DNA of 64,000 nucleotides from Squalus acanthias (GCA_030390025.1 CM059431.1:127846001-127910000); one strand, 5' to 3'; counted from the stretch's first letter, positions 4,467-62,989 are shown. Program-made: numbers and translations. The notes: generated by a model not told the origin, from the letters alone.

Positions 4467-4739
4467 GAAAAGCCAGGCCATTATTTTGCACCATTTTCCT
4501 GTCATGTCCATTCCTGTATGCTGGGTGGTAAGTTGCCTTTTAACTTGTTTGATGATGAATGGGAAGACATGAATTGATGTGGACTAATGGCGGGATGTTC
4601 AAAGGTGGTTGGTTGTTTGCAGGACTGCTTTGTGTCAGTGTCATTGCGGGGGGGTTGGTGGGGTAGTGGTAAGAGTGGCCATTGCATTTTCCTGTGACAT
4701 GGGTCCACTGGTGCAACCTAAGTTAACTTTGCATTAATA

Positions 4740-5680
4740 AGGGTGCCCCTGGCATCCCAGGCAGCAATGTGAGCAGCTGGGGATGCAATGCCCTCATCGC
4801 TATCCTCCACCTCATCTTTTTCCTCCTCCTCCTCCCTCTCTGTATCATTCAAAGAGGATCTGAGCTCTTCGCCTATTCCTCCTGCAGGTCTAAGCCTCGC
4901 TGCTGAGCAATATTGTACAGAACACAGCAAGCCGCATCCCTGGCTGGTGCATACTGAATGATGCCTCCAGATCTGTCTAGGCACCTGAAGCACTTCTCCA
5001 GCCTGCCGATGGCTTGTTCAATCAAGGTGGTCGTATGGCATTCATTGTAGCACTTTTAGGCTTCATTGGTCAGGTTTCTGACAGATACCATCAGCCAAAA
5101 CCGAAGTGGGTATCCTATGCCTCCTAGCAGCCACCTTTGAAGTCTGCTTGCAGGTCCGAAGACGTCAGGGAGCTTGAATTGCTGCAGAATCATGGCAGCT
5201 CCCCGGGAATCTTGTGCACACCTACATAAAGATCTTTCTGTGGTTGCATACCAGCTGCACATTGATGGCGTGGCAGCCCTTGCAGTTGGCAAATACTCCT
5301 GAATGATCTGGGGGGGTGCCCTGATTGCCACGTCTGTGCAGTTGATGATGCCTTGCACCGCAAACCCGAAAGCCCGCTCATGCTGATTGGCATCATCACA
5401 GGCGAAGTTGACATAATTGCCGGCCCTGTCTTATGCATTTGTGGGCCGCCAACTGGGAGATCCTGGAAATGTCTCCGGCAGAGCCCTGGAAGGATCCGAA
5501 GGCTAAAAAGTTGAGGGCGGTGATGACTTTGACAGCCACTAGTAAAGCAGGACCACCAGGTGCAGAAGGGAGCAGGTCTTCTTCTAGGAGGCTACAGATA
5601 TCTGCCACCACGTGACGTGACTACCTGAGCCTCCTGAGACACTGCTGTTTAGACATGTCAAGGAAACTGAGCATTCAGCC
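4740..5680 (-). pseudogene. Harbinger (HARBI1-like DDE) transposase remnant
   Basis: Frameshifted peptides VAVKVITALNFLAFGSFQGSAGDI, QGIINCTDVAIRAP, WLLGGIGYPL and an acidic C-terminus. Confidence 0.85.
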
Positions 5681-6622: not shown

Positions 6623-7860
6623 GTGTCAGCTGTGGCTCAGTGGGTAAGACTCTCGCCTCTGAGTCAGAAGGTTGTGGGTTCACAGTCCCACTCCAGGGAC
6701 TTGAGCACATAAATCTAGGCTGACACTCCAGTGCAGTGTTGCGGGAGTGCTGCACTGTTGGAGGTGCCATCTTTCGGATGAGACATTAAACCGAGGCCCC
6801 GTCTGCTCTCTCAAGTGGACGTAAAAGATTCCATGGTACTATTTCGAAGAAGAGCAGGGGAGATATCCCCGGTGTCCTGGCCAATATTTATCCCACAATC
6901 AACATCACTAAAACAGATTGGGCCAGAAATTCGGCTCTTGTCGGGTGAGTACGCGCTGTGTACTCACCCGTAAGGCCACCTGAAGTGCCAGTTTCACGCA
7001 TGCACTGCGCAAGCGCAGGAAAACAGAACTTCCGTTCCCCTGAAGGAAGGGGTTCAGAAGTCGAACGCATGCGCGGGAGAGGCAGCGTGCATGCAGCGAA
7101 CTTCGGTTTTTTTTCAGGTTTCTCCGTGAGGCTAAGTATGGAGAAGCTGCACTTTTAAAAAGGAGGTGCAAGGCCTGTTTTTAACAAGGTAAGTGGTTAA
7201 TTAATTACAATTTAAACATTTTTTCAACAGGTTTATCTTTTTTACATACTTTAAAGAAAGGTAAGTTTATTTTTAGCACCGTTAAAAAGTGTAATTAATT
7301 TTTTCAAAAATTAAAATTTTTCTTTAATGTAGTTAATTTATGTAATTTATAGTTATTTTAAAAATGTGATGTTTTTTTAAAATTTATTTGAATTTTTAGT
7401 GTGGCTTTGGGGCCGATCTCTATTCATAGATTTGACAGGTCTTCCTGTCAAATCTATGAATGAAAATTCCCTGCTAGGATTGGCTCTCCATGGCCCACGT
7501 GATCCCAGGGAACGCTTCGAACTAACTGCGCCCCTGGGACACGCAAGCACTGCGCGCCGGCAGCTGCAGGAGGCCCAGGACCCGAATTCCTCGTGGGCCC
7601 GAAGCACAACGGCAGACGCGGTAGGTAAGTACGCGTGCGATGCTTACACCTGCAGGAAGCCGGAGAGCTGAATTTCTGGCCCATTATCTGGTCATTATCA
7701 CATTTTTTGTTTCTGGGAGCTTGCTGTGCACAAATTGGCTGCTGCATTTCCCACCATCATATTACAACAGTGACTACACTCCAAAAGTATTTCATTTGCT
7801 ATAAAGTACTTTGAGATGTCCGGTGGTCATGGAAGGCGCTATATAAATGCATGTCTGTCT
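6623..7860 (+). mobile_element. tRNA-derived Deu-domain SINE (SacSINE1/AmnSINE-like), split by a MITE
   Basis: tRNA head (tggctcagtggg A box, ggttca B-box-like); Deu-like core ggaggtgccatctttcggatgagacattaaaccgaggcccc; L2-type tail aaggcgctatataaatgca. Confidence 0.8.
6920..7682 (+). mobile_element. Harbinger MITE family A, copy 1
   Basis: TIR gggccagaaattc / gaatttctggccc; TSD ATT; five homologous copies in the window. Confidence 0.9.
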
Positions 7861-15840: not shown

Positions 15841-18252
15841 CTTTTTTTTATTCGTATATGGGATATGGGTGTCGCTGGCAATGCCAGCATTTATTGCCTA
15901 TTCCTAATTGCCCTCGAGAATGTGGTGGTGAGCCGCCTTCTTGAACCGCTGCAGTCCGTGTGGTGAAGGTACTCCCACAGTGCTGTTAGGGAGGGAGTTC
16001 CAGGAATTTGACCCAGCGACGATGAAGGATCGGCGATATACTTCTAAGTCAGGATGGTGTGAGACTTGGAGGGGAACTTGGAGGTGGTGGTGTTCCCATG
16101 TGCCTGCTGCCTTTGTCCTTCTATGTGGTAGAGGTCGCGGGTTTGGGAGGTGCTGCCGAAGAAGCCTTGGCGAGTTGCTGCAGTGCATCTTGTAGATGGT
16201 ACACACTGCAGCCACGATACGCTGGTGGTGGAGGGAGTGAATGTTTAAGGTGGTGGATGGGGTGCCAACCAAGCGGGTTGCTTTGTCCTGGATGGTGTCG
16301 AGCTTCTTGAGTGTTGTTGGAGCTGCACTCATCCAGGCAAGTGGAGAGTATTCCATCACACTCCTTACTTGTGCCTTGTAGATTGTGGAAAGGCTTTGGG
16401 GAGTCAGGAGGTGAGACACTCGCTGCAGAATATCAAGCCTCTGACCTGCTCTTGTTGCCACTGTATTTATGTGGCTGGTCCAGTTAAGCTTCTGGTCAAT
16501 GGTGACCCCCAGGATGTTGACGATGGGGGATTCGGCGATGGTAATGCCGTTGAATGTCAAGGGGCGGTGGTTAGACTCCCGCTTGTTGGAGATAGTCATT
16601 GCCTGGCACTTCTGTGGCGCGAATGTTACCTGCCACTTATTAGCCCAAGCCTGAACGTCATCCAGGTCTTGTTGCATGCGGGCATGGACTTCTTCATATA
16701 TGAGGAGTTGTGAATGGCGCTGAACACTGTGCAGTCATCAGTGAACATTCCCACTTCTGACCTTATGTTGCAGGGAAGGTCATTGATGAAGCAGCTGAAG
16801 ATGGTTGGGCCTAGGACACTGCCCTGAGGAACTCCTGCAGCGATGTCCTGGGGCTGTGATGATTGACCTTCAACCACCACAACCATCTTCCTTTGTGCTA
16901 GGTATGACTCCAGCCAGTGGAGAGTTTTCCCCCTGATTCCCATTGACTTCAGTTTAACTAGGGCTCCTTGATGCCACACTCGGTCAAATGCTGCCTTGAT
17001 GTCAAGGGCAGTCACTCTCACCTCACTTCTGGAATTCAGCTCCTTTGTTCATGTTTGGACCAAGGCTGTAATGAGGTCGGGAGCTGAGTGGTCTTGGCGG
17101 AACCCAAACTGGGCATCTGTGAACAGGTTATTGGTGAGTAAGTGCTGCTTGACAGCACTGTCAATTACACCTTCCATAGACTGATGGGGCAGTAATTGGC
17201 CGGGTTGGATTTGTCCTGCTTTTTGTGAACAGGACATACCTAGGCAGTTTTCCACATTGTCGGATAGATGCCAGTGTTGTAGCTGTACTGGAACAGCTTG
17301 GCTAGAGGCGCGGCTAGTTCTGTAACACAAGTCTTCAGCATGACAGCCGAGATCTTATCGGGGCCCATAGCCTTTGCTTTATCTAGTGCGCTCAGCCGTT
17401 TCTTGATATCACGTGGAGTGAATCGAATTGGCTGAAGACCGGCTTCTGTGATGGTGGGGACCTCAGGAGTAGGCCGATATGTGTCATCTACTTGGCACTT
17501 CTGGCTGAAGATGGTTGCAAACACTTCAGCCTTGTCTTTTACATTCACCTGCTGGGCTCCACCATCTTTGAGGCTGGGGATATTCATGGAGCCTCCTCCT
17601 CCTGTTAGTTGTTTAATAGTCCACCGCCATTCACGACTGGATTTGGCAGGACTGCAGAGCTTTGATCTGATCCATTGATTGTGGGATCGCTTAGCCCTGT
17701 CTATAGCATGCTGCTTCCTGCTTTTTAGCATGCATGTAGTCCTGTGTTGCAGCTTCCCCAGGCTGGCACCTCATTTTTCGGTACGCCTGGTGCTGTTCCT
17801 GGCATGCTCCTTATTGATCCAGGGTTGGCCCCCTGGCTTGATGGTAATGGTAGAGTGAAGGATATGCCGGGCCATGAGGTTACAGATTGTGGTGGAATAC
17901 AATTCTGCTGCTGCTGATGGCCCACAGTGCCTCATGGTTGCCCAGTTTTGTGCTGCTAGATCTGTTCTGAATCTATCCCATTTAGCACGGTGGTACTGCC
18001 ATGCAACACGATGGAGACTGTCCTCAGTGTGAAGATGGGACTTCGTCTCCACAATGACTGTGCAGTGGTCACTGCTACCAATGCTGTCATGGACAGATGC
18101 ATCTGCGACAGGTAGATTGGTGAGGATGAGGTCAAGAAGGTTTTTCCCTTGTGTTGGTTCTCACTACCTGTCGCAGGCCCAGACTGGCAGTTATGTCCTT
18201 CAGGACTCGGCCAGCTCGGTCAGCAGTGGTGCTTCCAAGCCACTCTTGGTGA
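15841..18252 (-). mobile_element. 5'-truncated CR1/Zenon-like LINE
   Basis: ORFs 15904-16677, 16626-17021 (AFDRVWH, QGSVLGP) and 17240-17731; poly-T at ~15842. Confidence 0.9.
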
Positions 18253-18738: not shown

Positions 18739-20459
18739 TGTAGAATTCGCAATATATCGCGATTTTATTAATAAGGAGAAAAACACATAGTTTCGTTCAA
18801 ACAGCTTTTATTTCAGCAGAATGCTGTCAGGTTTTCAAAGTGGACACAAGCAGCTGTAAAATGGCCGCCGCACCTCGTGGCAGAACATTCTAGACTTTTC
18901 AACAGGCAGACAAGATGGCGTTCCAGTAAACATTTGTGCAAGATCGATTAAGACTCAGCACATTGAAGATAATACACGAGACATCATGGGTTTACAGTAT
19001 ACACATAAATACTGAAATCGGTCTCCCAGGTGCGAATAAGAGCTATTGTACCAAGTAATCAAGAATCCATCCAAAGACATTAATATGTAAAATCCCAACG
19101 ACTCTACGATGAGAGAGCCGTTAGCGGGTAGTTACAGAAAACACTTGGAAGCCCCAAAACCCCTCCGGGGAGAACACCGACCGATTAAACAATGGGAGAA
19201 ATATTAACAGGTACTCAGACATTTACGAGTAGCCCCGAAACCCATTAAAACGAAGATCACCCTATACAAGACATTTGAGCGCCAAACCCTAACAAAAGAA
19301 AAGACATTAAGGTTGGGCGGGAAACGGAAGATTTTGCACTATAATTGCAAGCTCCAAACCGTCCATCTTTCTCTTGACTCTTGACTCTTGACTCTTGACT
19401 CGTATCCTCGTGGCTGCTCTTGACTCGCCGTCTTGTTCCTGCTTGCCTTGTGTCTCTTTTCAAAAAGACTGTTGAATTTTTACGATCCGCTCGAATCTAC
19501 CTCGTGTCGTGTCGCGAAGACCTGTGTAGAACTGGGCTCTGAAGCCTTGAAGCGGGCGCTCCATTCCGATAAGTCGGTAAACGGTGTTGGAACCGAAGGC
19601 CCGAGATGAGATGAGATGAGATGAGATGAGATGAGATGAGATGAGAAGAGAAGAAGACCATACTTATCGCCACGGTCAGTAAGCCCCGACCACGCCTGTA
19701 GGTCGAATAGACATTTTCCTTGCCAGGAAGACTTCTTTGAGTTCTACAGAACTGACACAGGAAGACTCTTCTTCGAATTTTATCGCATCAGTGCGAGGGC
19801 ACAGGAAGACTCTTTTTTTGAGTAGAGTCGGAACTCCGAGGACAACACAGATCTTCATGACAGCAGACGTTCCAGCCTGCTAGCCGGAGCAGAAACGAGT
19901 AAACAAGTGGGGCCAGGAGACCCCCTGATCGACACGTGGGCGCTGCGGTGAAAAACATCCGATCAGAGTTTTCGGAATTCTCCGAGTTATCACGAGTGGT
20001 GAGCATGAGTCTCGAATCCTACGAATCTAGCTTAGGACAGATATTGATAGGGGTGGGTTTCAAGTATTAAGGATAATTGTAATGTGTGCCCCCATTTACG
20101 ATGTGTCGTTCGTTCCTCGTTTCCCCGAAATTAGTTACATAACTGCGTGTAAGATTGTACTGTCATTAATCTGTGCTTATGACATGTATTTCGTAATCTT
20201 AAGTATTATGCAATAAAGATTTTCCATTTCGTACCATTCAACCGAGTCTACCTGAGTTTCATCTCCATTACTGCTCTCGCATCTAAGTCCAGTGTCTAGA
20301 ACCGTAAGGGCGAGTGGGTCGAACCACTCACAGGTGTGTCTAGTGCTCCCAGACTGGCTGGAGACCAGAACAGGCAACAAGGCCTAAACCCGCACTAGCA
20401 CCCGGGCTGAGCACAGAGCCACACGAATCTCACAGGCTGAGAGCCAAAAAACCCTTACA
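18739..20459 (+). repeat. 5' LTR (~1.72 kb)
   Basis: tgtagaattcgc…cccttaca; homologous over its whole length to 30929-32596; AATAAA at ~20212; internal (gagat)n at ~19603-19645. Confidence 0.92.
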
Positions 20460-20463
20460 GAAA

Positions 20464-22271
20464 ATGGCGACCGCGGCAGGACACTGGCAGCGAGAGGGTA
20501 GTGTGTTAGATTTTGGTGTGAATGTACGAAATGTTATGCAGGAAAAGATAGCAGATTATGTGTTCGGATAGGTAAATCTAACTAAGAAATGGATAAGTGA
20601 CCTGTTAGCAGATAAGAGTCCACTAGAGGCAGCCGAGAGGTGGACAGATAGTAAGGAACATAAAAAGACAGTCGAGAAAGCAGTCTGGTTAATGTGTTAC
20701 AAAAGGCAGGTCCAGATTTCAAACCAGGTCATTACAGCGCAAACAGCTCGGATCAGGCATTTAGAGGAGGAAATGGATGAGAAAGTCTCTGGAGGGGAGT
20801 TGCTCATTAGGAATTTAAGTGTGCTGCACCGAGAACGCCAGGAAATCACCAGTCACCACAAAGCAAAAATGGATTACCTCGAGTGCCAAGTCACTGAGGC
20901 AAAGTTAAGTGAGGGCAGACTAAAGGAACGATGTGCCCGCCAAGCTGCCCAAATAAGAGCCCAGGAAGAGAGCTTAACGGGGGTTAGGGCGGCATATAAG
21001 ATGGCCCTTGAGGATAAATTTCAGGGGGCCGATCATAGCGCCTGCCAAAAGAGATAGAGCACCTTAAAAGGGCCGTGAACAAAGCGCACGGCATGGTGTG
21101 CCTTATCAGTCCGTCAGCACACCAGCCGCTAGTAGATGAGGAGTTTCAGAAATTCCCACCAAGTAAAGCAAAGGACGTATTAGCCACTACGCCCTCCGCG
21201 CCACCCAGCTATTCGGAAACCTGGGTAAGGGAGGAAGTAGTAGAAGAAACAAAAGAGCCCACTGAGGGAGAAGTGGAAAAGGGACCGTTGTGTCCAGTTA
21301 CGGGTATAAAAAGGGGCCCAAACAGAAACGGTGGGGAGGAACCAGGGGATCTCCTCAACCAGCTTGTGTTGCCTCACAGCTCACACCAGCTGAGAGATAT
21401 GATAAATCACGTACGGAAGCTGACCGAGTCAGACGACCCTTCCGTACATTTCAGAGAAGTTGAGCAAACCGCAGCCATTAACGGCTGCGATGATGGGGAA
21501 ACAGCAAAAATGCTGTTATTTTCGTTAGGCAGTTCAATCCTTCAGTGTCTCTCGGACGAGAGCAAGAGGGGAACCAAGACATATGAGGCATTAAAAAATG
21601 AAGTCCTAGAAGTGTTGGGGACGGACGATGAAGGTCCGTTTGCTAGAGTGGGACAGACAGTGCAGATGGAGGGAGAACCCCCGAAGGTTTTTGCCGACAG
21701 GCTGTGGCCAGTATATCAACGCAGCTGTCCAGGTGCGCCAGAGCGCGATGATGTGGACGGCGTCGGTTTAACTCATTGGCTCAGGTGTATAGTAGCCAAC
21801 AGTTTGCCAGCCGTCAGAGAGCAGGCAAAAGCGTGGTTTGATCCCACTGACCCCAACATTACGGAAGAGTCGGTCTTAAATCGACTCACGGTAGGATACC
21901 GCAATATAAGGGGTATGGGAACACGTCCCCTTAAGGGAAAAGTACATGAGGTACGACCCGCAGCCCCGGCTCAAAAGGAGTGGCATCAGGAGGGTAACCG
22001 CGCCCCGCATGCAAGTAATGCTTGTTACGGGTGTGGGAGGACAGGACACTGGCGCAAGAACTGCAGGAACCCTTGGAAGGATTCCAGGGATAAAAATCCC
22101 GCAGCCCGAGCCCAGATGCCTGTCTCGGTTAGGGAAGCTAGTGCACCCACCCCTCCCGACGACCTCGAAACAGTGTTGGGAGCCATGCGCAACTTCATGA
22201 GTGCACATGGAAAGGTGGCGGTTGCTACCGGCCCCGCAGGTGCCACAGCCCCGTCCAATAGTACCCAATGA
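20464..22271 (+). pseudogene. gag: gag (~600 aa; in-frame TAG at 20569, 1-nt frameshift at ~21050)
   Basis: ATG 20464 is in frame with ORF 20692-21057; N-terminal coiled coil, PSAPPSY, MHR-like QMEGEPPKVFADRL, zinc knuckle CYGCGRTGHWRKNC (22023-22064). Confidence 0.88.
20465..20482 (+). promoter_or_regulatory. Primer-binding site, tRNA-Arg(UCG)
   Basis: TGGCGACCGCGGCAGGAC is complementary to the 3' end of vertebrate tRNA-Arg-TCG (…GTCCTGCCGCGGTCG-CCA, recalled sequence); it lies 5 nt after the LTR. Confidence 0.85.
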
Positions 22272-23417
22272 CTAGAGCCCACGCAGCCTGCCTACCTGTG
22301 TCCTTTTAAAAGACACGCACAGGAGGGCGTCTCCTGTGAGGAGGCCAGGTTAAAAGAGCAGGCCTTGCGGGAGGAGAACGCCCACTTAATAGGGAAAATA
22401 GATGGGCTAGAAGAGCAGCTTAGAGAGCAGGCCCTGCGGGAGGAGAACGCCCGCTTAATGGGAAAGTTAGACGTGCTCAGGCTAGAAGGGCAGCTTAGAG
22501 AAATAAAAGCAGCCTACCAGGTAGCCAGAAGCAGGGATTTAAATCAGTGCAAACTGTACAAGCCAGGTGCACAAGGGAAAACCACAGGGGCAAACCCTGC
22601 GAGTGGGGACTCGCAGCCCCAGGTAGGACCACAAGGCACACAGGCAGGCAAAGCAGCCTGCATCAGGGAAGGAGGCATCCTGGAAAATTGTGAAACATTT
22701 TTGTGGGGTTGGCAGTCAGATGAGGGAGAGTTCCAGGAACTCGAGTCAGATGAGGATAGTGATGAGGACGAGTGGGAATCGGGGAACGCAAGGGTCGCCC
22801 CCGATTCAGGTATAGGGAGGACAGGGGCTGCAGATAGAGATCCACACAGGGTGGACACCCAGGCTGCAGGTCCCGAACACAGGAGGGAGGAGCTAGGGGA
22901 GGCGGAGCCAGCCACTGTGGGACCACAGGGCGGGACGGCGGAAACCTCAGAGCCCGAGCCGCCCGCCTTGAACGTCCTGCCCTCGGGGGAGGTAGGGACT
23001 GCGAGTGAAGGGCCGCCTGCTGGGCCGAGCAGGGCGGTGCCACAAGCTGCAGGTCCCGAGGTCAGGGAGGCGGAGTCAGGGGAGGCGGAGCCAGCGACTG
23101 TGGTGGGACCACAGGTCGTCCCGGTGGAAGTCTCGGAACCCGGTCCGTCGGTCCTGGGATTCCTGCCCCCGACAACTCCTCGTAGGTCAAGTAGAGCACC
23201 CCAGCCCAGGAAGATGTGGTCATGGCCCCAGACTGCCCCAAGGCGTAGACTCAAGGTTAAGGCAGCCCAGGTAGGGCCCGGTCCCATCGCAGCAGCAACA
23301 GGCTGCGGCAGATCAAAGGAAGGGGTCAGTGCAGCCACAGGCTGCGGCAGATCAAAGGAAGGGGTCAGTGCCCTCCCAACGTCGGGAAGAGCTCGCAGCA
23401 GCCTTCTCAGAATTTAA
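22272..23417 (+). CDS. ORF2: uninterrupted ~381-codon frame after the gag TGA-CTAG; coiled-coil, acidic and Pro/Glu-rich; no pol motifs
   Basis: Same frame as gag with no stop between 22272 and 23414; internal repeats EQALREENA x2, QAAGPE…GEAEPATV x2, AATGCGRSKEGVS x2. Confidence 0.65.
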   Translation, partial: LEPTQPAYLCPFKRHAQEGVSCEEARLKEQALREENAHLIGKIDGLEEQLREQALREENARLMGKLDVLRLEGQLREIKAAYQVARSRDLNQCKLYKPGAQGKTTGANPASGDSQPQVGPQGTQAGKAACIREGGILENCETFLWGWQSDEGEFQELESDEDSDEDEWESGNARVAPDSGIGRTGAADRDPHRVDTQAAGPEHRREELGEAEPATVGPQGGTAETSEPEPPALNVLPSGEVGTASEGPPAGPSRAVPQAAGPEVREAESGEAEPATVVGPQVVPVEVSEPGPSVLGFLPPTTPRRSSRAPQPRKMWSWPQTAPRRRLKVKAAQVGPGPIAAATGCGRSKEGVSAATGCGRSKEGVSALPTSGRARSSLLRI

Positions 23418-23723
23418 AGGGGCCGCCCTGGGAACGGGCGGCGCTGTACAGTAATAAGTTTAAGTTTAGGATAAGTTTCTAGGTTTATAGCTTAAGGTTA
23501 AGAATAAGTTTATAGTTTTAAATAAGGTTAAGTTTGTAGTTTAATTTTAACAGAAAATGGTAAAATGATGGGAGCTTTAGAGATAGGTCTAGTTAAAGTT
23601 TATTCAGTGAACATTGAAGTTTACGTGAGGCGAGGTCAGGGGACCCGCTCACCCTTCACAAAAGCCAGAGACTCTTGCGAGGCTGGCTACCTCATTCTAT
23701 CTGATCACAGGAACCAAGGAAGG

Positions 23724-25030
23724 ATGGAACGAATTCTAGTATTGCTCGCGGCAATCGGATGTGGATTGGCCTATCGAGGCCGCACCAAGGATGTCGTGGT
23801 GTTTGGATGCTCCGGGGACACGGCCCCCATCGCGGTGGATGGGACCGGAAGACGGGAGGCTGAGGAGACCACCACCTATTTCCACAAGGGAAGGTGGCCA
23901 GGATGGCTGGGAACAAACTCAACGGAGTATTCTAGCACATCGGGGTTTGCCTACCAAGAGACTTCTTTAATGTGCCCCAAAGTAAGGATCATCGCACCCA
24001 GAATCAGCGTCACTGTCGGCAAACGGATTTGTTTGACTTGTAATGGGAATGTCCCATTGAGCCGATGGTGGTGGCTGCGAAAGCTGAGCAAAAACATGAG
24101 GAACTCTTCGGTCGAGTGGGAACGACTGGGTAATAATACCCATCGGACAATTACGGGGACAAACGGACAAGTGAGAGTCTGTTGGGACAAATGGTGGGAA
24201 CCGGATGAGGGAATTTAGGTATGCATGTGGGGGTCAAAGTACGCTTGCCCCAAAGGCATCTCCATATTTTTCATTAACGAATGGCAGGATAACGGACAGG
24301 GGATGAGGTGGGATGCGAGCACCAGGGGGTGCGGAGCCCCATACTCTTCGATCCCGGTAAATGCCACTGAGCTCATTACGCGCTCACGCAAAGCCCCGCC
24401 CACGATTCCGGTGGTTCTAGCTGAAGAGGAAGGGTGCCCTAAAACTAGTAAGGGACCCGGGAATGGTTTGGTACTGGTCCCCACAGACCAGATACTATTT
24501 CAGGGGGTACATTACGCGGTGGCCTCGGTGATTTTAAATCTCACCGAGGTACGGTTACCAGAGTGGTGCCCCAAAAAGACGGAACAGTTGTATCAGGTCC
24601 TGTTGACCAAGATGTTCAGACAATTTTACGAATTCGATTTCGCGGAAATTGATAAAACAAGTTTGTACACCGCACCACATGAAGTTTTGGATCAAGTAGG
24701 GAGGCAAAGAAGGGGTGTAGTGAACGACGCGTTCACTGCTTTTAACACGGGTACATCTGTGGTCAACGCTCTAGACAGTGTGGAGCTGCAGACCCAGATT
24801 AATGGTTTAAAGACGCAATTAAAAGACATTCTAACAGATGAGAATAAAGTGGTTGGGTCGGGTTTACACGAGGACCAAGCCATGACTCTCCATTTAAAGG
24901 AAATTATAGCAGAGTTAGAGAAACATGCGAAGACGGTAAATGCCCTGATTAGAGAAGATCGGAATGCATCCGATCAAGCTGCGCAGAATGAGGTGTGTGT
25001 GCTTTACGGGGCGTGGTTACTGGGCATTTG
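23724..25030 (+). pseudogene. env: env: signal peptide + Ig-like domain + class I fusion protein (paramyxo/pneumovirus-F-like); one in-frame TAG at 24216; C-terminally truncated
   Basis: Signal peptide MERILVLLAAIGCGLA; ORFs 23565-24218 and 24225-25160 share a frame; furin site RQRR (24702-24713) followed by GVVNDAFTAFNTGTSVVNAL and a heptad repeat; candidate splice acceptor ttctatctgatcacag ending at 23710. Confidence 0.8.
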
Positions 25031-25279
25031 GAACCTCCGGTGCACACGCATAGCCGCAACATTGGGTGCGTTGCGCGGTTCCGGTGGGGGCGGGACAGGG
25101 TTTAGGCTCCGCCCTCATGCAGTGTGCGTGCCCAGAAGGACGCAGAAGACCCCTTGCTAATAATCACTGTGCATATTTTATCTCTTCCAGGTTTAACCCT
25201 GGCCAGTCAAGTTTACTGAGCCTTGGGAAACCCGGCAGCTAAAGGGAGGCAAGGACGGCTGCGTGGAAGAGATGAATGG

Positions 25280-26670
25280 CCTTTATTACAAGAGGATTTG
25301 AGTATCAGAGTAAAGACATCTTACTGCAATTATATAGGGCCCTGGTGAGACCACACCTGGAGTATTGTGTACAGTTTTGGTCTCTTTGGCCCAGAAATTA
25401 AACATCGATGGTTCCCGCGGGGGTAAGGATTCCCTGCGATATTGCACTCCGCGCCTACCTTTTTGTTTCGGGCCCACACGAACTTCAGTTTCAGGGCCTC
25501 TCCCTGTTGCCAGCGTGCAGTGCTTGCGTGTCCCAGAGGCGCAATTAGTTCATGCGAGCTCTGGGATCACGTGATTCAGTTAGAGCCAATGGCAGCACAC
25601 CATCTTTCATTCATAGTTTTGACAGCAAGGGCTGTCAAAGCTATGAATACTACAAGCCCCCAAAATAACAGCTAAACCTCAGTCAAATTATAAAAAAAAG
25701 CCATCACATTAATGAAATAACTATAGTTAAATAAATTAACCACTTTAAACAAAAAATATAATTTTTGAAAAAATTTAAAATCTTTTTAAAAGTTATAAAA
25801 ATAAACTTACCTTTCTTTAAAGTCTCTAAAAAAGATAAACCTGTTGAAAAAAAATTAAAATAACACTTAATTAACTACTTACCTTGTTAAAAGGGGGTCC
25901 TACGCCTGCTTTCTTTATGTGTAAAATCTTTACCACTTACCTGCGCGTTCAAACCTGAAAAAAAAACTAAGTGCACTGCGTGCGCGCAGCCTGTAGCGCG
26001 CACGCGGTTCACTTAGGAACCATCCCCTTTGCAATACACGAAGTGCCGGTTTCCCGCGCATGCACAGTGCATGCAGGAAACCGGCAATTCTGGAACTAAT
26101 ACGCGAGAGTACACAGTGCGTACTCTCGCGTATTAGGTCTAATTTTCGGGCCATTACCTAAGGAAGGATATACTTGCCATAGAGGGAGTGCAATGAAGGT
26201 TCACCAGACTGGTTCCTTGGATGTCCTATGAGGAGAGATTGAATAGACTCGTCCTATATTCTCTAGAGTTTAGAAGAATGAGAGGTGATCTCATTGAAAC
26301 ATACAAAATTCTTACAGGGCTTGATGGGGTAGATGCAGGGAGGATGTTTCCCCTGGCTGGGGGGTCTATAACCAGGGGTCACAGTCTCAGAATAAGGGGT
26401 CGGCCATTTAGGACTGAGATGAGGAGAAATTTCTTCACTCAGAGGGTGGTGAATCTTTGGAATTCTTTACCCCAGAGAACTGTGGAGGCTCAGTCGTTGA
26501 GTATATTCAAGACAGAGATCAATAGATTTTTGAATATTAAGGGAATCAAGGGATATAGGGATAGTGCGGGAAAGCGGAGATGAGGTAGAATATCAGCCAG
26601 GATCTTATTGAATGGCGGGGCAGGCTTGAAGGGCCAAATGGCCTACTCCTGCACCTATTTCTTATGTACT
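25280..26670 (+). mobile_element. CR1 3' fragment split by a MITE
   Basis: [13 protein letters not shown]… and ORF 26221-26583 (LYSLEFRRMRGDLIETYKI); CR1 tail. Confidence 0.88.
25388..26152 (-). mobile_element. Harbinger MITE family A, copy 2
   Basis: TIRs ggcccagaaatt / aattttcgggcc; nearly identical to 61517-62277. Confidence 0.9.
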
Positions 26671-27211: not shown

Positions 27212-29330
27212 AGGGAGAAATTGGTCCTGGTGACAGTCATTTCCTAGAAGGAAACCATGGGCAAATAGCACTAATTTGGGGGCGAAACAACCCCAAGGGC
27301 ACCGGAAAAATATCCAAGCCCATTCAAGCGACATTCAGGTATACCTGGGGTGGCAGGTAAAATAATAATGATAATAACCATCCCTCAACGTGCAGCTGGT
27401 GTGTAACCACAAGAAGGAAATTTTGTATGTTTGCGCCAAGTACCCTGGCAGTTGCCATGACTCGTTCATCCTGCGGCAGTCTAGTGTGCCTCCGCTCTTC
27501 AGTCCGCCAAACCAACTTTGCGGATGGCTAGTTGGAGACAAGGGCTATCCCCTGAAGACGTGGCTAATGACACCATTCAGGAGGCCATTCAACGAAGCTG
27601 AGGAGCGCTACAACTCCAGCCACATTTCGACCAGATCCATTATCGAGCAAATCATCGGCTTGCTGAAGATGCAATTCAGATGCTTTGATAGATCAGGTGG
27701 AGCCCTGCAGAACTCAGCAGCCAAGGTATCCAGAATCGTCGTGGTCTGCTGTGCACTTCACAACATGGCACAGCATCGTGGCTTGCAGCTGCCTGAGGGA
27801 CAAGTGGCTCAGTGCATAGCCTCCTCAGATGAGGAGGAGGAGGATGAGGAGGAGAGTGAGAACGAAGACCTTGCGGAGGCGCATCAACCAGCGGCAGTAG
27901 CACGCGAGAACATTGCTGCCCGGGATGCAAGGGATGCACTGATCTTGGCCAGATTTGCTTAGGCTGCCCAATCAAACACATTTGGCTCGCACCTTCTTAC
28001 CACACCATCGACAATGGACAAGAACCTGTGGCTTCCTATCACTCTGACCACCATACTGACAAATCCAAGTCGTCCTGAGCCCTCAATGTGGAATTTCCAT
28101 TTGCGAAATGACACAGCCCACAACTTCAACAGTTTGCCATCACTTCATTTTATAACATTCAGTAAAGGATGGCATTTCACAATTAAACACAACAGAACAC
28201 TCAAGTAACTACCCTTGTGACTACTTGTGCTTTATCTTCCTCTTACGCGTGCTCCTACATGGTGCTTCCACTGTGGCTTCAACAGATGTGGAGGCCCCTT
28301 GCTCACTTTCATGCTGCTTCTGCCGCGACACCTTTGGCGGGTGTCCTCTGGGGTTGCGAGCCTGTGAGGGCTCGCCAACAGTCTGCTGCTCCTGCGGCTG
28401 TGCAGGGGCTGAGATGCCCATCTCAGTCGGTTGAGGACTCTGGTGGGGCTCTGACCGAGGGCTCCGCAGTGGCATGCGAGTGTGAGGGCTTGGAGAGGAG
28501 CCCCCACTTCCTTGTTGTCTGCCACCAACATCCCTCTATTGGGTCAGACCGACTTCAGAGCTAGCAAGTGGCTTGACAGCACCTTGCTGCACTTCAGGGG
28601 GGCCATGAGGACCCATTTCTGAACTGGCAGTCCTACTCCAGAGGACTTCCATGAAGCTCTGGTTTCTCTGCTCAATAGCTGCAGAGATGTCAGTCCAATC
28701 TGAACAATTACCATGTTTTCAAGACCTTGGCGACTTAGCTCCTCCATGACCGTAGCCATTCTCTCCTCTACCGTAGCCATCCTTTCCACGGAGGTTGCCA
28801 TCCTTTCCGTGGTGATGCATTCAAGCGCCAATGCCTCTACAAAGGCTCTGCTCATGTTAGCGATGGATTCCTCCATCCTCTCCACACTCGCAGTGACCCT
28901 GGAGACAAAACCTGCCAGAGACTCCTGCACCTGTTCCTGGAGTTCCATCACCGCTCTCCTCCTGGATGGACCCAGAGGCACAGGGTCGACATGCAGCTGA
29001 GCCGAGCTGGGAGCACCCTGCGGCCTCCGACGAGGACTCTCCACTGCTGTCCCTGTCTCCACCATCTGCTGATGCTCACTTGTGAGCTGTGATACACCAG
29101 TTGACAACACTACTCTATGTCCCGAAGGTTCCACCGAAGTTTGAGTGTCTGCGCTGGTGCTGGGTGCGCTTAATTCTGATGACGCTGCACCCTCAGAGGT
29201 TGTAGCTTCCTCTGAGGAGTCTGGGGGCTCAGGCTCTTCTTCCTGGACAGTGGGGAGGGTGGCTGTCGATGGTCCTGTGGGGGAGTAAAGGAAAGAGTTA
29301 GACATGTGATATAAACGTCTAATTGCCTGC
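27212..29330. mobile_element. Internally deleted Harbinger: transposase C-terminus (+, ~27380-27962) and last Myb-gene exon (-, ~28221-29275)
   Basis: SLNVQLVC…[11 protein letters not shown]…[10 protein letters not shown]…CCALHN; convergent low-complexity/coiled-coil ORF ending RSTRKRKIKHK; TIR-like gggagaaattgg at ~27212. Confidence 0.85.
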
Positions 29331-30870: not shown

Positions 30871-30928
30871 CCCGCTGACCTCATTGACCAGAAACACTAA
30901 TTTTAAAATAACAAATATTGAGAACAAT

Positions 30929-32596
30929 TGTAGAATTCGCAATATTATCGCGATTTTATAAATAAGGAGGAGACACATAGTTTCGTACAAACAGCTTTAT
31001 TTGAGCAGAATGCTGTCAGGTTTTCAAAGTGGACACAAGCAGCCTGTGAAATGGCCGCCACGCCTCGTGGCAGAACGTTCTAGACTTTTCGATAAGCAGA
31101 CAAGATGGCGTTCCAATAAACATTTGTGTGAGATCGGACAAGACTCAGCACATTTGAGATAAATCACAAGACATAATGGGTTTGCATTTTACACATAAAT
31201 ACTGGAATCGGTCTCCCAGGTGCGAATAAGGGCTATTGTACCGAGCGATCAAGAACCCATCCAAAGACATTAATATGCAAAATCCCCACGACTCTACGAT
31301 GAGAGAGCCGTTTGCGGGTAGTTACAGAAACATTTGGAAGCCCCAAAAGCCCTCCAGGGAGAATACTGACCGGTTACACAATGGGAGAAGTATTAACGGG
31401 TACTCAGGCAGTTACAAGTATCACCGAAACCCATTAAACGGAGATCACCCTATACAAGAAGTTTGGGCGCCAAAACCCTGACAAAAGAAAAGACATTAAG
31501 ATTGGGCGGGAAAAGAGGAATTACAGCACTATAACTGTAAGGTACAACCGTCCATCTGTCTCTTGACTCTTGCATCTGCCTCTTGACTCTTGGATCCTGA
31601 CTCTTGCTGCTCGACTTGCTAGAAGACTTTTGAACTTTCTGATCCGCCAGGATCAACCTCGTGGCTTGCCGCGAAGATCTGTGAAGAACTGGGCTGTGAG
31701 GCCTTGAAACGGGCACACCATCCCGAGAAGTCGGTAAACGGTGTTGGAACCGAAGGCCCGAGATGAGATGAGATGAGATGAGATGAGATGAGAAGAGAAG
31801 AAGACGACCATACGTATCGCCACGGTCAGTAAGCCCCGACCGCGCCTGTAGGTCGAATAAACACTTTCCTTGCCCAGGAAGACTATTCTTTGAGTTTTAC
31901 AAACTGGCGTGAGGGCACAGGAAGACCATTCTTCGAGTTTTATCGCATCGGGGCGAGGGCACAGGAAGACTATTTTTCGAGTCGTGTCGGAACTCCGAGG
32001 ACAACACAGATCTTCATGACAGCAGACGGTCCAGCCTGCTAGCCGGAGCAGAAACGAGTAAACAAGTGGGGTACAGAGACCCCTGATCAACACATGGGTG
32101 GTCAGGTGCTGCAGGAAAAACATCCGAGCAGAGTTTCGGAATTCTCCGAGTTATCACGAGTGGTGAGCATGAGTCTCGATCCTACAAATCTAGTTTAGGT
32201 CAGGTATTGATAGGGGAGGGTTTAAGTTTTAAGGATAATTATAATGTGTGTCCCCTTTTACGATGTGTCGTGCGCTCCTCGTTTCCCTAAAATTAGTTAC
32301 ATAACTGCGTGTAAGATTGTACTGTCATTAATCTGTGCTTATGACATGTATTTCGTAATCTTGAATAATATGCAATAAAGATTTTCCATTTCGCACTATT
32401 CAACCGGGTCTACCTGAGTTTTCTCTGCATTATTGCTCTCGCACCTAAGTCCAGTGTCAGAACCGTAAGGGCAAGTGGGTCGAACCACTCACAGGTGTCT
32501 AGTGCTACCAGGCTGGCTGGAGACCAGAACAGGCAACAAGGCCTAACCCCGCACTAGCACCCAGGCTACGCACAGAGCCGCAGGTCACCCCTTACA
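30929..32596 (+). repeat. Solo LTR, same family as 18739-20459
   Basis: TG…CA ends; 4-bp TSD CAAT on both sides (30925-30928 and 32597-32600); no PBS after it and no PPT before it. Confidence 0.92.
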
Positions 32597-32884
32597 CAAT
32601 GATAGTCGATATCAAAGGCATTGTAGGAAAACTCTGAAAAAGCATGAAAAGTCACAGCTTTTCTCTAAAGATTGAAGTGTGATGAGAACACAGCCACCTC
32701 TTCCGTGACAAATTTGTAATATTGCGCTTGCTTTTCATGAGTCCAACAGTGTGCTTGATGTGCTTTAATGTAGTATACATTTGTTTTCACAGGGCATGTA
32801 AGTTACTGTATGGGTTATTCGGTTCCTCAACGACCTATCAAATATTTGTGGCTCTCCAATAAAATAGAATATTGCACATTCAAT

Positions 32885-50544: not shown

Positions 50545-51580
50545 GTAAAAACAGAAAATGCTGGAGTTAATGGCCCAAAAATTCGGCCGAATACGGGTGA
50601 GTACGCACTGTGTACTCACCCGTATTCGATCCCGAAGTGCCGGTTTCCTGCATGTATGGCGAAGGGGGCGGTTCCTAGGTGAACCGCGTGTGCACTACAG
50701 GCTGTGCGCACGCAGCACACTTAGGTTTTTTTTCAGGTTTCAACGCAAGGGTAAGTATGGAAGATTTTACACAAGTAAAAAGGAGGCGTAAGACCCCTTT
50801 TGAACAAGGTAAGTAGTTAATTAAGTATAATTTTAAATTTTTTTCAACAGGTTTATCTTTTTTAGAGACTTTAAAGAAAGGTAAGTTTATTTTTATAACT
50901 TGTAAAAAGAATTAAAAATTTTCAAAAATTTAAATTTTTGTTTAAAGTGGTAATTTATTTAACTTTAGTTATTTTATTAATGTGATGGGTTTAAAAACAA
51001 AATTATTTGAGGTTTAGCTGTTCTTTTGGGGGCGATTTGTATTCATAGATTTGACAGGTCTCCTGTCAAATCTATGAATGAAAGATGGTCTGCTGCCATT
51101 GGCTCTCCATGGCCCACGTGATCCTAGGAGTCACATCGCACTAACTGCGCCCCTGAGACACGCAAGCACTGCGCGCCGGCACCAGGGAGAGGCCCAGGAC
51201 CCGATGTTCCTGTGGGCCCGAAACACAACGGCAGGCGCGATAGGTAAGATCGCGCGCGATCCTTACCCCCGCGGCAAGCCAGCCACCCAAATTTCTAGGC
51301 CAATGTTTCAGGTCGATGGCCTTTGATCAGAACTGAAAAATGTTAGAGGTGTAACAGGTTTTAAGCAAGTACAGAGGCAGAGAAAGGGGGGAGGGGAGGA
51401 AAGAACAAACGAGAAGGTCTGTGATAGGGTGGAAGGCAGGAGAGATTAAATGACAAAAGGGATGATGGTGCAAGGCAAAAAGGATGTTAATGGGACAAGT
51501 AAAGAAACAAAAGATGGGTCTAGAGGAGGTGTATATGACAATATCAGAATTATTACCAACAGCTGCTGTCCGATAAAATG
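50545..51580 (-). mobile_element. Penelope-like element terminal fragment split by a MITE
   Basis: aaaacagaaaatgctgg…gtttcaggtcgatggcctttgatcagaact (degenerate hammerhead on the - strand) followed by a purine-rich tract. Confidence 0.6.
50572..51301 (+). mobile_element. Harbinger MITE family A, copy 3
   Basis: TIR ggcccaaaaattcggc / aatttctaggcc; TSD AAT. Confidence 0.9.
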
Positions 51581-52538: not shown

Positions 52539-53299
52539 GGGCCAGAAATTCGGCTCCCTGGCTTCCCGCGGGTGCAAGGATCGCGCGCGCACCTACCTAC
52601 CGCGCCTGCCGTTGACCTCTGGGCCCACGGGGACTTCGGCTCCTGGGCCTCCTCCAACTGCCGGCGCGCAGTGCTTGTGTATCCCAGGGGCGTAGTTAGT
52701 GCGATGCGTCTCCTGGGATCACGTGGGCCATGGAGAGCCAATGGCAGCAGACCATCTTTCATTCATAGATTTGACAGGACCTGTCAAATCTATGAATACA
52801 GATTGGCCCCAAAACATCCCTAAAACTACAAATAAATTAAAAAAAAAAATCACATTTTTAAAATAACTATAAATTACATTAATTAACTATTTTAAACAAA
52901 AATTTAAATTTTTGAAAAAATTAATTATATTTTTTAACAGGGCTAAAACTAAACTTACCTTTCTTTAAAGTAATTAAAAAAGATAAATCTGTGAAAAAAA
53001 TGTTTAAATTTTAATAAAATCAACACTTACCTTGTTAAAAGAAGGCCTTGCGCCTCCTTTTTAAAAGTGTATCTTCTCCGTGCTTACCTTCACGGAGGAA
53101 CCTGTAAAAAAATCCGAAGTGCGAGGCAAACGCGCTGGCCCTCCGGCGTGCGCGTTCGACCCCTGAACCCCTTTCCTCAGGGGAACGGAAGTGCCGGTTT
53201 CCCGCGCATGCGCATTGCATGCAAGAAACCGCGCTTTCGTTCCGTCCACGGGTGAGTACACAGTGCGTACTCACCCGACAACAGCCGAATTTCTGCCCC
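52539..53299 (-). mobile_element. Harbinger MITE family A, copy 4
   Basis: TIR gggccagaaattcggc / gccgaatttctgcccc; TSD ATG. Confidence 0.9.
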
Positions 53300-60575: not shown

Positions 60576-61516
60576 CCACACATTGGTGCTGCCTGGTATA
60601 AAACAACCACACTTCTGTTTCACTGCAATGTTGGTAGAACATGTGGTGATCTTGTGATTTAGGCTAGTGTCGTAAAAATATACAAGTACAAAGGGGATTT
60701 TTTTAAATACTTTGCAATTTAAAGGTTATCTGTATTATTTCAAATGCTGCAATCTCTCTTGGCACCATTGTTAAACCAAAGGGCTGTTGTTAACAGAGTC
60801 GCTTTCAACATTTCATGCTTGGGTTAATTCCCATTACTTTCAATTTTTCACACTCCTCCTTCTATCTCACTGTGATCTAATTCACATGCAATACTTATCC
60901 ATGTTCTATCTGCTGTAAGAAATTCCTGAATTTGAATACAGCTTTTTTTTTGCCGTAGCTACTTCAGCTGTTCCCCAGGAAAACTTCTGCTTGGTACTAT
61001 TTTTTGAAAGGGGTTGGCGGGGTGTGGGGGTGAGTCCTAAGTTTAACAACAACATATTGAATTTATAGAATCATAGAATCATAGAAAGTTACAGCACGGA
61101 AGGAGGCCATTTCGGCCCATTGTGTCTGCGCCGGCCAACAAAGAGCTTTCGACATAAAGAATTTTCCAAAGCACACACAGATATGAGTAAGGAAAATGGA
61201 CACTGAGCCAGGAAGGAAGAGATTAAGAGGAGCGACCAAAATCTCTGTTCATGAGATGGGTTTTAAGGAGGGTTTTAAAGGAGGTGAGGAAGTTGGAGAT
61301 GCAGACAACTTTAGGGAGCGAATCTGAAAGTGGGGCCCAGCTTGTTGAAGGCTCTGCCATCAATTGAGGGTGAGGGGGTGGGGCGGAGGGATTGGTTTGC
61401 ATAAAACGAATGGAGGAATTGGGTGTGGGGGGAATATAGCGTAGAGATTTCAGAGATAGAGTGGGATGAGGCCAATGGTGGGATTTAAAGCTGAAGACAA
61501 GGATTTTAAATTTAAT

Positions 61517-62277
61517 GGCCCAGAAATTAAACAGTGAGGGTTCCCGCGGGGTAAGGATTCCCCGCGATATCGCACTCCGCGCCTACCTTTTTGCTCCGGG
61601 CCCACACGAACTTTAGTTTGAATGGCTCTGTCTCTTGGAACCGTGCAGTGCTTGCGTGACCCAGAGACGCAATTAGTTTGTGCGAGCTCTGGGATCACGT
61701 GATTCAGTTAGAGCCAATGGCAGCACACCATCTTTCATTCATAATTTTGACAGGAAGACCTGTCAAAGATATGAATACTGCACACCCCCAAAAGAACAGC
61801 TAAACCTCAATTAAATTTAAAAAAAAGCCATCACATTAATAAAATAAGTATAGTTAAATAAATTAACCACTTTAAACAAAATATTAAATTTTTGAATTTT
61901 TTAAAATCTTTTTAAAAGTTATAAAAATAAACTTACCTTTCTTTAAAGTCTCTAAAAAAGATAAACCTGTTGAAAAAAAATTAAAATAACACTTAATTAA
62001 CTACTTACCTTGTTAAAGGGGTGTCATACGCCTGCTTTTTTTATGTGTAAAATCTTCACCACTTACCTGCGCGTTCAAAGCTGAAAAAAAACTAAGTGCA
62101 CTGCGTGCGCACAGCCTGTAGCGCGCACGCAGTTCACTTAGGAACCGCCCCCTTTTGAATTCACGAAGTGCCGGTTTCCCACGCATGCGCAGTGCATGCA
62201 GGAAACCGGCAATTGGAGACCTAATACGCGAGAGTACACAGTGCGTACTCTCGCGTATTAGGTCTAATTTTCGGGCC
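61517..62277 (-). mobile_element. Harbinger MITE family A, copy 5
   Basis: TIR ggcccagaaatt / aattttcgggcc; TSD AAT. Confidence 0.9.
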
Positions 62278-62989
62278 AATGTGTTGGGGGATAGGGAGCT
62301 AACATTGATCATTATTAAATTTAATATTTAATGAATTAAATCTAAAGTGCATCATTCATTTTAAAATTTTCACATTTGGTGGAGTTCAATTTCTGAAATT
62401 ACCCATTAGATTACAAGACCACCTTGTGATTGTCATGTATTCTGCCATCAGATAATTTAGTTCAGATTTTCATAGTGAGTCGCAGACATTCTACTGCCAG
62501 CATGCTGTCCCAAATTCATTGAAAATAGTAAGCTTACCAAAGATTTCATCTTTGTTGCTCCATAGTTAGAACTGTGGGAAAACTCTGGCACTTTTTGATA
62601 AGTGAGCCACTGAACCTGAGCTGTTGCAGCATGCAGCAAGACATCCTGCCCATCAAGTCTGCACCAGTGCTTTTATCCACATGATGTACCTAGTCTAATC
62701 CCAGTCCCCTGCTTCCTTCCATGACCCTTTAATATTCCTCTTTTTCAAGCAACTATCTAATTCCCTTCTAAAATAATTTATGGACTCTACTTCAACAATA
62801 GTTTCTTTCAGAGAATGTTGCATTCTAACTACCCTCTATGCAATTAAAATTTTCGAATCTCTCTTTTATATTGTTTTGTGATCATCTCAAATATATTTCA
62901 TTACAGACTTGCTGATCAGTGAAGTGCCGCTTTATTCACCCTACCACAAAAACATAGATAAAATGGAGTTCACATAAAAGGGACAAGGA

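Follow-up and report, generated by a model that had tools for sequence, protein, structure and literature searches.

Defective endogenous retroviruses (ERVs) that exploit competent relatives, and outnumber them, are established in mammals, where they usually lack working genes. In cattle, the D-type forms of ERVK[2-1-LTR], as opposed to the C-type, are such trans-complemented deletion derivatives, and the same report names ETn/MusD, IAP I-delta-1 and recombinant KoRV as parallels (PMC10924933). Chicken EAV-HP, an alpharetrovirus relative, is described as lacking the whole of pol and also parts of gag and env (PMC3554524). Zebrafish BHIKHARI elements (Bik-1 and Bik-2) are presented as nonautonomous endogenous lokiretroviruses, of which Bik-2 encodes gag without either pol or env, whereas Bik-1 has one long open reading frame (ORF; bioRxiv 10.1101/2024.03.25.586437). 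Lokiretroviruses themselves carry gag, pol (protease (PR), reverse transcriptase (RT), tether, RNase H and integrase (IN)) and an Env resembling the F proteins of Mononegavirales, with a basic cleavage site, fusion peptide, coiled coil and transmembrane segment; the Loki-Str Env matches PF00523 at 2e-7, and the hosts given are lampreys, bony fishes, amphibians and reptiles (PMC7947760). The text of that description considered here makes no mention of cartilaginous fishes or sharks. Here we describe an ERV from the spiny dogfish shark, Squalus acanthias, located at positions 18739-25025 of a 64,000-nt stretch of the genome (CM059431.1:127846001-127910000; hereafter the window), which has gag and env but no pol. 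The element is a derivative rather than an autonomous member of the long terminal repeat (LTR) retroviruses, and the copy in the window is a dead, 3′-truncated member of its family. We consider it very likely, with a probability of roughly 85%, that this family is a non-autonomous lineage that arose from one internal deletion and spread with the enzymes of a full-length family.

Like the bovine D-type elements, the pol-less family has had a central coding part swapped for a short unrelated segment, with LTRs and flanking gag and env sequence kept, and it reaches high copy number in a genome that also contains an autonomous partner, following the same ‘parasite of a parasite’ logic. Unlike the D-type, described as having no intact gene, it retains complete and apparently selected gag and env and has lost only pol; its host is a cartilaginous fish, and its Env is predicted to be F-like rather than canonical retroviral. 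The absence of the entire pol with gag and env sequences and LTRs remaining recalls EAV-HP, but here gag and env are complete, and selection on the element's own genes is not reported for EAV-HP in the account cited. With BHIKHARI, as far as that preprint describes it, the family shares its nature as a nonautonomous, recently active fish ERV, relatives with an F-like Env, and a Gag of ∼600 residues (617 in Bik, 602 here) in which an N-terminal coiled coil is followed by the capsid (CA) region. Unlike Bik, it has kept env, and its Gag ends in a CCHC knuckle, compared with the glycine-rich patch described for Bik-1. The predicted Env fold, the Pol domain order including a dual RNase H, and the presence of Env homologues in frogs and sharks are all reminiscent of lokiretroviruses as described, although, unlike Loki-Str Env, the Env here has no PF00523 match at E<=1. 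Membership of the pol-less family and its full-length relatives in the lokiretroviruses is plausible on the grounds of predicted Env fold and the order of the Pol domains. Among the literature listings and passages considered, none describes an ERV family of cartilaginous fishes that has lost pol and retained env. What is distinctive is the combination of features, with pol alone lost, gag and env complete and apparently selected, and ∼1,100 copies; it is not a new category of element.

Searches of the 3.7-Gb genome assembly revealed that the pol-less arrangement recurs. A 1,701-bp query extending from the end of gag through the following reading frame (ORF2) into the spacer that precedes env was complete, at 92-97% identity, in 37 of the 39 other places scored (only 40 candidate places were scored), so the junction is not peculiar to the window, nor do its relatives all carry pol, and the structure far exceeds what chance would give. 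Ten copies were examined at length (20 kb each). All are collinear with the window from the start of the LTR to the equivalent of position 25025 (one only to 24616) and then for ∼1.5 kb more, and eight have a second LTR at a constant spacing of 7.77 kb from the first. The complete element is ∼9.5 kb, with ∼6.06 kb between the LTRs, which is too short to hold a pol gene. The 5′ LTR in the window is 90-97% identical to those of the ten other copies, and the two LTRs within a copy are 98.8-99.9% identical in seven of the eight pairs and 90.8% in the eighth. Clean 4-bp target duplications, all different (CAAC, ATGC, GGTC, CTTT and ATTA), flank five of the eight; two of the others match at three of four positions with a one-base offset, and the 3′ end of one was not resolved. 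A purine-rich tract (acaggagggac) lies immediately 5′ of the 3′ LTR in all eight complete copies. The family has thus been amplified by integration. A 28-mer spanning the left breakpoint, with up to two mismatches allowed, occurs at 1,107 genomic sites (513 forward and 594 reverse; none for the reversed control), and the pol-less structure has therefore replicated as such. These insertions, with paired LTRs and distinct target duplications, are what the earlier note, made from the window alone, had expected of an element that multiplied in this form. In the ten long copies gag is open in seven, ORF2 in ten and full-length env in five, with all three open in three; among 20 loci compared in detail, the corresponding figures are 13 for gag, 19 for ORF2 and 13 for the part of env covered.

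The pol-bearing relative is represented in the window by a second LTR, at 30929-32596 on the + strand, which is 86% (BLAST) or 85% (MAFFT) identical to the LTR at 18739-20459. It is flanked on both sides by CAAT (30925-32600 with the duplications) and is thus a true solo LTR. Thirty-nine other places in the genome match it at 96-98% identity, and three pairs of these lie 11.08 kb apart, not 7.77 kb, and enclose pol. The diverged solo LTR reported earlier some 10 kb from the element is therefore genuine, but it belongs to the full-length, or helper, subfamily (here B) and not to the pol-less one (A). That it might be the 3′ LTR of the same provirus was ruled out, as the CAAT duplication is its own, its sequence places it in the helper subfamily, and the missing 3′ part of env is nowhere in the window. 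One helper copy, L041, was read as a 4-kb region from inside one of the 11.08-kb LTR pairs. After the same gag end and TGA, it has a single frame that stays open for at least 1,279 codons and contains RVP, RVT_1, RT_RNaseH_2, RNase_H, Integrase_H2C2, rve and SH3-like domains. The RNase H is dual, with RT_RNaseH_2/RT_RNaseH at residues 470-602 and RNase_H at 650-792. This copy displays the same LTR termini, the same gaaaa spacer, a primer-binding site (PBS) identical at 18 of 18 positions and a 4-bp target duplication (TAGC/TAGC), and is thus the pol-containing helper with matching LTR and PBS that the earlier note proposed should be sought. The helper is also abundant. The 3.6-kb pol region deleted from the pol-less form is present at full length, with 98-99% identity, in 39 other scored places, and a 26-mer spanning the helper gag-protease junction occurs at 2,185 genomic sites (control, 0). 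Counted by junction, pol-less and helper forms together contribute ∼3,300 internal regions; if each were a complete copy, they would make up roughly 1% of the genome. The helper RT scored 247 bits against Ty3, 244 against the RT of xenotropic murine leukaemia virus-related virus (XMRV), 216/202 against foamy virus PR-RT and about 55-62 against HIV RT; the near-equal values for Ty3, XMRV and foamy virus fit a deep branch, as an indirect hint only.

Comparison of the two forms locates the deletion. On the left, 4709-4904 of the pol-less sequence L021 align with 1-196 of L041 at 89% identity and, on the right, 5141-5326 align with 3814-3999 of L041 at 91%; between these flanks 3,617 bases of the helper are swapped for 236 unrelated bases. 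The left breakpoint and filler are the same from copy to copy, and mark a single ancestral deletion. In the window, all on the + strand, the retained start of pol occupies 22272-22303 (32 nt, codons LEPTQPAYLCP; 89% in the alignment to the helper), the 236-bp filler, in the position of the PR-RT-RNase H-IN region, 22304-22539, and the C-terminal tail of Pol 22540-23417 (91%). The tail derives from the region downstream of the integrase SH3-like domain, and is acidic and proline-rich. By these alignments, ORF2 (22272-23417, 381 codons) is composed of 11 pol codons, the filler and the C-terminal tail of Pol. The filler, which codes for a heptad-like coiled coil, has an internal tandem duplication of ∼70 bp; no homologue of it was found in the element, the window, the helper, proteins of 216-688 amino acids (longer and shorter ones were not searched) or a protein atlas. 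No protease, RT, RNase H or integrase domain was detected in ORF2 at E<=1, nor was there a Pfam match to any of these at E<=1 anywhere in 20572-25160. The earlier description of an open, non-enzymatic frame between gag and env is accurate in that the frame is open and has no enzyme domain, but the frame consists of a pol remnant plus filler and displays no sign of selection. That ORF2 is a new gene was ruled out by its collinearity with the ends of helper pol and its neutral substitution ratio (see below).

ORF2 lies in frame behind the gag terminator, TGA followed by CTAG (22269-22275, + strand), as does pol in the helper. An in-frame gag-stop-pol organization is found in gamma- and epsilonretroviruses. 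The sequence CAA TGA CTA GAG is present at the end of gag in both forms, and the TGA is retained in all 20 loci. UGA CUAG matches a consensus described as favouring readthrough in mammals (bioRxiv 10.1101/2021.04.18.440353). Readthrough at this site would generate Gag-Pol in the helper and Gag-ORF2 in the pol-less form.

The pattern of substitution among the 20 pol-less loci distinguishes gag and env from ORF2. The ratio of nonsynonymous to synonymous rates (dN/dS) was 0.30 for gag (median pairwise; 0.45 pooled) and 0.135 for the first 428 codons of env (0.38 pooled), compared with 0.70 by both measures for ORF2. Off-frame controls gave values of 0.88-1.41 in five of six cases; the sixth, frame +1 of ORF2, gave 0.50. 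This frame, with a pooled ratio of 0.50 against 0.70 for the ORF2 frame, contains an open frame of 92-152 codons in all ten long copies, and its low ratio may be an artefact of composition. Substitutions shared by at least two copies were counted apart from those found in a single copy. The ratio of shared nonsynonymous to synonymous changes (N:S) was 76:67 for gag, against a neutral expectation of 3.5 (binomial p about 1e-10), and 27:38 for env, against 3.4 (p about 7e-10), while ORF2, at 49:15 against 3.07, was neutral (p = 1.0). Singleton changes were nearer neutral, at 258:90 in gag and 142:73 in env. Over 1,190 bases of env, 9 nonsynonymous and 48 synonymous differences separate one pol-less copy from the helper (dN 0.010, dS 0.20, ratio 0.05), and env has therefore not been drifting freely in the pol-less lineage. 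These data indicate constraint on gag and env with none on ORF2. Both genes are under purifying selection, which seems to have continued after the loss of pol, and ORF2 evolves neutrally and, as a protein, shows no sign of being needed.

A mechanism for the origin and spread of the family can be proposed from these features. The ancestor would have been a full-length provirus with the organization LTR-PBS(Arg)-gag-UGA-pol-env-LTR and LTR starts 11.08 kb apart, from which the 3,617 bp that code for protease, RT, RNase H and integrase were lost, once, with the 236-bp filler taking their place. The deleted genome retains every cis element (LTR ends, PBS, polypurine tract and leader) together with complete gag and env. 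In cells expressing the full-length family, pol-less RNA would be packaged with, or into, particles holding helper Gag-Pol, where the helper RT would prime from tRNA-Arg on the common PBS, the helper integrase would recognize the common LTR ends and make the same 4-bp duplication, and the helper protease would cleave the Gag of the pol-less element. The element's own Gag and Env probably raise its transmission, because purifying selection on both genes seems to have continued once pol was gone, and such selection would point to cell-to-cell, infection-like spread rather than purely intracellular retrotransposition. ORF2 would be produced only as the Gag-ORF2 readthrough product. The proposal in the earlier note of a non-autonomous, env-bearing satellite lineage that borrows Pol in trans is thus supported by the 1,107 junctions, the marks of integration and the existence of the helper; co-packaging, trans-complementation and infection-like spread are what we infer from them.

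Several observations weigh against this interpretation or qualify it. Mobilization in trans by the helper, and expression of the family, are putative. The helper and pol-less LTRs are only ∼85-86% identical and, to judge from the env dS of 0.20, the two lineages split long ago; a closer pol-bearing relative with an A-type LTR may exist or have existed. With respect to selection, the 20 loci were those most similar to the junction in the window and are a biased sample, the singleton counts include some alignment error, the pooled dN/dS values exceed the medians in both gag (0.45) and env (0.38), and the ratio of 0.05 for env against the helper derives from a single pair over 1.19 kb. Furthermore, a 28-mer spanning the right breakpoint occurs at only 178 sites, against 1,107 for the left one. 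A second sub-variant, L047 (C1:20947208-20947707), has the same left junction and filler as L021 4893-5362 (6 differences in 227 positions), but is 9 bp longer at the right junction and 17.5% diverged in the tail; this is the one further copy examined in this respect. The 1,107 copies thus comprise several sub-variants, and the pol-less lineage contains old ones. Finally, pol-less elements or their LTRs recur at intervals of ∼7.7 kb on C1 (143657922/143665645/143673363), C2 (133593990/133601709) and C1725 (262486/270188/277903), and form an array on C3295 (86889-118340) with a period of ∼7.7 kb, or 8.07 kb in part. This periodicity suggests head-to-tail copies sharing LTRs, and some copies therefore stem from recombination and not from integration.

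Such arrays would also be expected if the copies had multiplied mainly at the DNA level, by segmental duplication or unequal crossing-over, or if the deletion had been recurrent, with no replicating pol-less lineage. We regard this explanation as highly improbable, as the left-junction sites are dispersed over many contigs on nearly equal numbers of forward and reverse strands, the target duplications differ in five of eight copies, LTRs within a pair are far more similar than LTRs between copies, and the copies share one left breakpoint and one filler. It is less far-fetched, though still improbable, that Pol came from a source other than the B subfamily, either an extinct or rare pol-bearing element with an A-type LTR or an unrelated retrovirus. 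The ∼15% difference between A and B LTRs and the env dS of 0.20 are consistent with such a source, as is the greater diversity of the pol-less copies (92-97% identity) compared with the current burst of helpers (98-99%), which means that part of the pol-less history predates that burst. However, the PBS is identical at 18 of 18 positions, the LTR termini and the length of the target duplication are alike in both forms, and the helper is abundant, with an open Pol frame in the single copy read. In addition, the young pol-less insertions, with LTR pairs up to 99.9% identical, overlap in age with helper copies that differ by 1-2%.

A further proposal, compatible with mobilization by the helper, is that a function resides in the filler, in the Gag-ORF2 readthrough product or in both. 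The filler might be a cis-acting RNA element, or a new coiled-coil adapter joined to Gag, and either would confer an advantage in packaging or in competition with the helper. The two diverged sub-variants differ at only 6 of 227 sites in the filler, compared with 37 of 212 in the tail next to it (Fisher p = 9e-8), and the left junction and filler are common to sub-variants with different right junctions. ORF2 is open in 19 of the 20 loci, TGA CTAG is retained in all 20, and pairwise dN/dS is 0.42 in the first 100 codons of ORF2 compared with 0.84 in the remainder. The shared changes, on the other hand, are neutral both in the filler (N:S 7:2) and in ORF2 as a whole (49:15), and of the approximately six or seven differences that separate the two sub-variants in the filler, five, as read from the alignment, alter an amino acid; any constraint would therefore act on the nucleotides and not on the protein. 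Long open frames are expected in ORF2 because of its 60% GC composition, the searches for a filler homologue described above were negative, and the low divergence of the filler could simply come from recombination between co-packaged RNAs. The filler has thus either been under constraint as a nucleotide sequence or been spread by recombination, and a functional role for it or for the readthrough product is rather unlikely. A broader and slightly less doubtful extension, put forward tentatively, is that the family constitutes a long-lived ‘satellite retrovirus’. It would be a lineage of its own, in keeping with the env dS of 0.20, the several sub-variants and the ∼1,100 copies, which would spread in an infection-like manner by means of its own Gag and F-like Env, use stolen PR, RT and IN, and out-compete the helper for packaging with the filler as a cis-acting RNA element.

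The two genes retained by the pol-less lineage encode recognizable structural proteins. In the window gag extends from 20464 to 22271 (+ strand; ∼602 codons in open copies), and its ATG at 20464 overlaps the PBS. Gag of complete copies has 602 residues and contains PSAP and PPSY motifs and a CCHC knuckle, which scored 17-19 bits in Pfam (18.9 for the window), below the cut-off of 20.8. The protein adjoins retrotransposon Gag clusters in a language-model look-up (0.91, 172 shared features), and there was no match to it among longer proteins. The N-terminal region is predicted to be helical/coiled-coil. A single-sequence structural model of low confidence (predicted local distance difference test (pLDDT) score 41.6) suggests that a long N-terminal part is helical, as is a region of the size of CA. 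PSAP and PPSY, the two classical retroviral late-budding motifs, adjoin each other at residues ∼240-252 (∼21190-21230 in the window).

Env of a complete copy comprises 783 residues from the signal peptide. Its sequence features are, in order, MERILVLLAAIGCG, an RQRR cleavage site followed by a hydrophobic peptide (RQRR|GVVNDVFTAF), and a C-terminal hydrophobic stretch that forms the membrane anchor. Among 1.84 billion representative sequences, 50 relatives were found at E<=0.001, from a skate, sharks and frogs, the closest being skate and shark gene models with 54-76% identity. Neither Env at E<=1 nor 11 homologues at E<=0.1 matched PF00523, no other Pfam family matched, and the Env sequence and profile returned only chance-level matches among PDB sequences. 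In an AlphaFold model built from a 22-sequence alignment, mean pLDDT was 55.8, with residues 235-650 mostly at 60-90. Foldseek returned human parainfluenza virus 3 F (1ztm) as the best match to residues 245-755 of this model (E 6e-12, probability 1.0), and all of the matches listed to rank 50 were paramyxo- or pneumovirus F proteins. VIA-align of the same residues gave Z scores of 12.1 for Newcastle disease virus F (root-mean-square deviation (rmsd) 13.2, 379 residues aligned), 11.2 for parainfluenza virus 5 F, 10.6 for human metapneumovirus F (rmsd 6.0, 278 aligned) and 8.6-8.7 for foamy virus Env; the top 16 rows were all paramyxo- or pneumovirus F or foamy virus Env. Identity to these proteins is only 7-15%, and differences between pre- and post-fusion shapes keep the TM-scores low (0.2-0.5). 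Env is thus clearly predicted to be a class I fusion glycoprotein with a paramyxovirus-F-like fold, in agreement with the reference in the earlier note to the F-related Env of lokiretroviruses. While residues 245-755 resemble these F proteins and foamy virus Env in predicted fold, Env differs from both in an additional N-terminal region of ∼220 residues, which may be a receptor-binding domain. Residues 1-235 (23724-24430 in the window) have pLDDT values below 50 and weak hints of an immunoglobulin (Ig) domain (Ig_3, E 0.075-0.3); among the homologues, one from a shark bears the name ‘Ig-like domain-containing’. The homologues, from a skate, several sharks and three frogs, are annotated as uncharacterized proteins or lie within host gene models (Niban-like, zinc finger and cadherin-related); the Env lineage is widespread and contaminates gene annotations.

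The PBS occupies 20465-20482 (18 nt, + strand), 5 nt (gaaaa) after the LTR, and is complementary to the 3′ end of host tRNA-Arg(UCG). The 15 PBS bases other than CCA, combined with a generic T-loop motif, matched 462 genomic sites (control, 0), most of them in 1.6-kb tandem arrays, and at the single site fetched ARAGORN called a tRNA-Arg gene of 85 nt with anticodon TCG, which bears out the earlier assignment of the PBS to the tRNA-Arg type. A pattern anchored on the acceptor stem gave no match, the 85-nt gene exceeding the gap allowed in that pattern, and there were no tRNA genes in the window or in 20 family loci. Almost all of the first 100 listed sites (of 462) lie on contig C26, where hundreds of tRNA-Arg(TCG) genes form tandem arrays with a 1,623-bp period (38996704-42219716).

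In the window the order of features on the + strand between 18739 and 25025, established from stop-to-stop frames and self-BLAST, is LTR, PBS, gag, UGA, ORF2, AT-rich spacer and the 5′ part of env; the earlier outline of an LTR, tRNA-Arg PBS, gag, ORF2, AT-rich spacer and env without pol is therefore borne out throughout. The 5′ LTR, of the A subfamily, extends over 18739-20459 (+ strand, 1,721 bp), starts with TGTAGAATTC and ends with CCCTTACA, with TG...CA ends. Between ORF2 and env lies a 306-bp spacer (23418-23723, + strand) whose AT-rich core (23440-23600) has 20-35% GC and degenerate TAAGTTTA-like repeats. This core is common to the family and could be a splice or transport signal for env. 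The 5′ 434 codons of env (23724-25025, + strand) encode the signal peptide, N-terminal domain, RQRR cleavage site, fusion peptide and first heptad repeat. Similarity to other copies stops exactly at 25025, so that the start proposed earlier (18739) stands and the end (25030) does not; the copy is 3′-truncated and has no 3′ LTR, and its own target duplication is unreadable because that LTR is absent. The gag and env genes are present but both interrupted. A stop codon at 20569-20571 and a frame shift near 21049 break gag, contigs of other copies having one additional base at 21049/21050, while env carries an in-frame stop at 24216-24218. Contigs of other copies also bridge the gag-filler junction (for example, 21649-22488), and in them env sequence continues beyond 25025.

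Other repeats surround the locus. Just behind 25025 is an unrelated repeat (25387-26153) with a 92% identical copy at 61516-62278 and weaker copies at 50565-51303, 6947-7683 and 52539-53272. A fragment of a long interspersed nuclear element (LINE) reverse transcriptase (RVT_1, E 1e-20) lies upstream of the ERV copy, at 15904-18160 on the - strand, and a Harbinger/PIF-type transposase fragment (DDE_Tnp_4, E 1e-29) downstream, at 27378-27962 on the + strand.

The family documents a very abundant, young retrovirus group with a predicted F-like Env in a cartilaginous fish, S. acanthias. With the enzymes alone missing, and with gag and env apparently kept by strong purifying selection in a family of about a thousand copies, it is of solid interest for retrovirus evolution, and provides a natural system in which to ask which retroviral functions are needed in cis and which can be borrowed, and whether envelope-dependent spread can sustain a high copy number. 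As a rule, high-copy ERVs are those that lose env. If the tentative ‘satellite retrovirus’ extension were true, the family would be an env-dependent counter-example to that rule.

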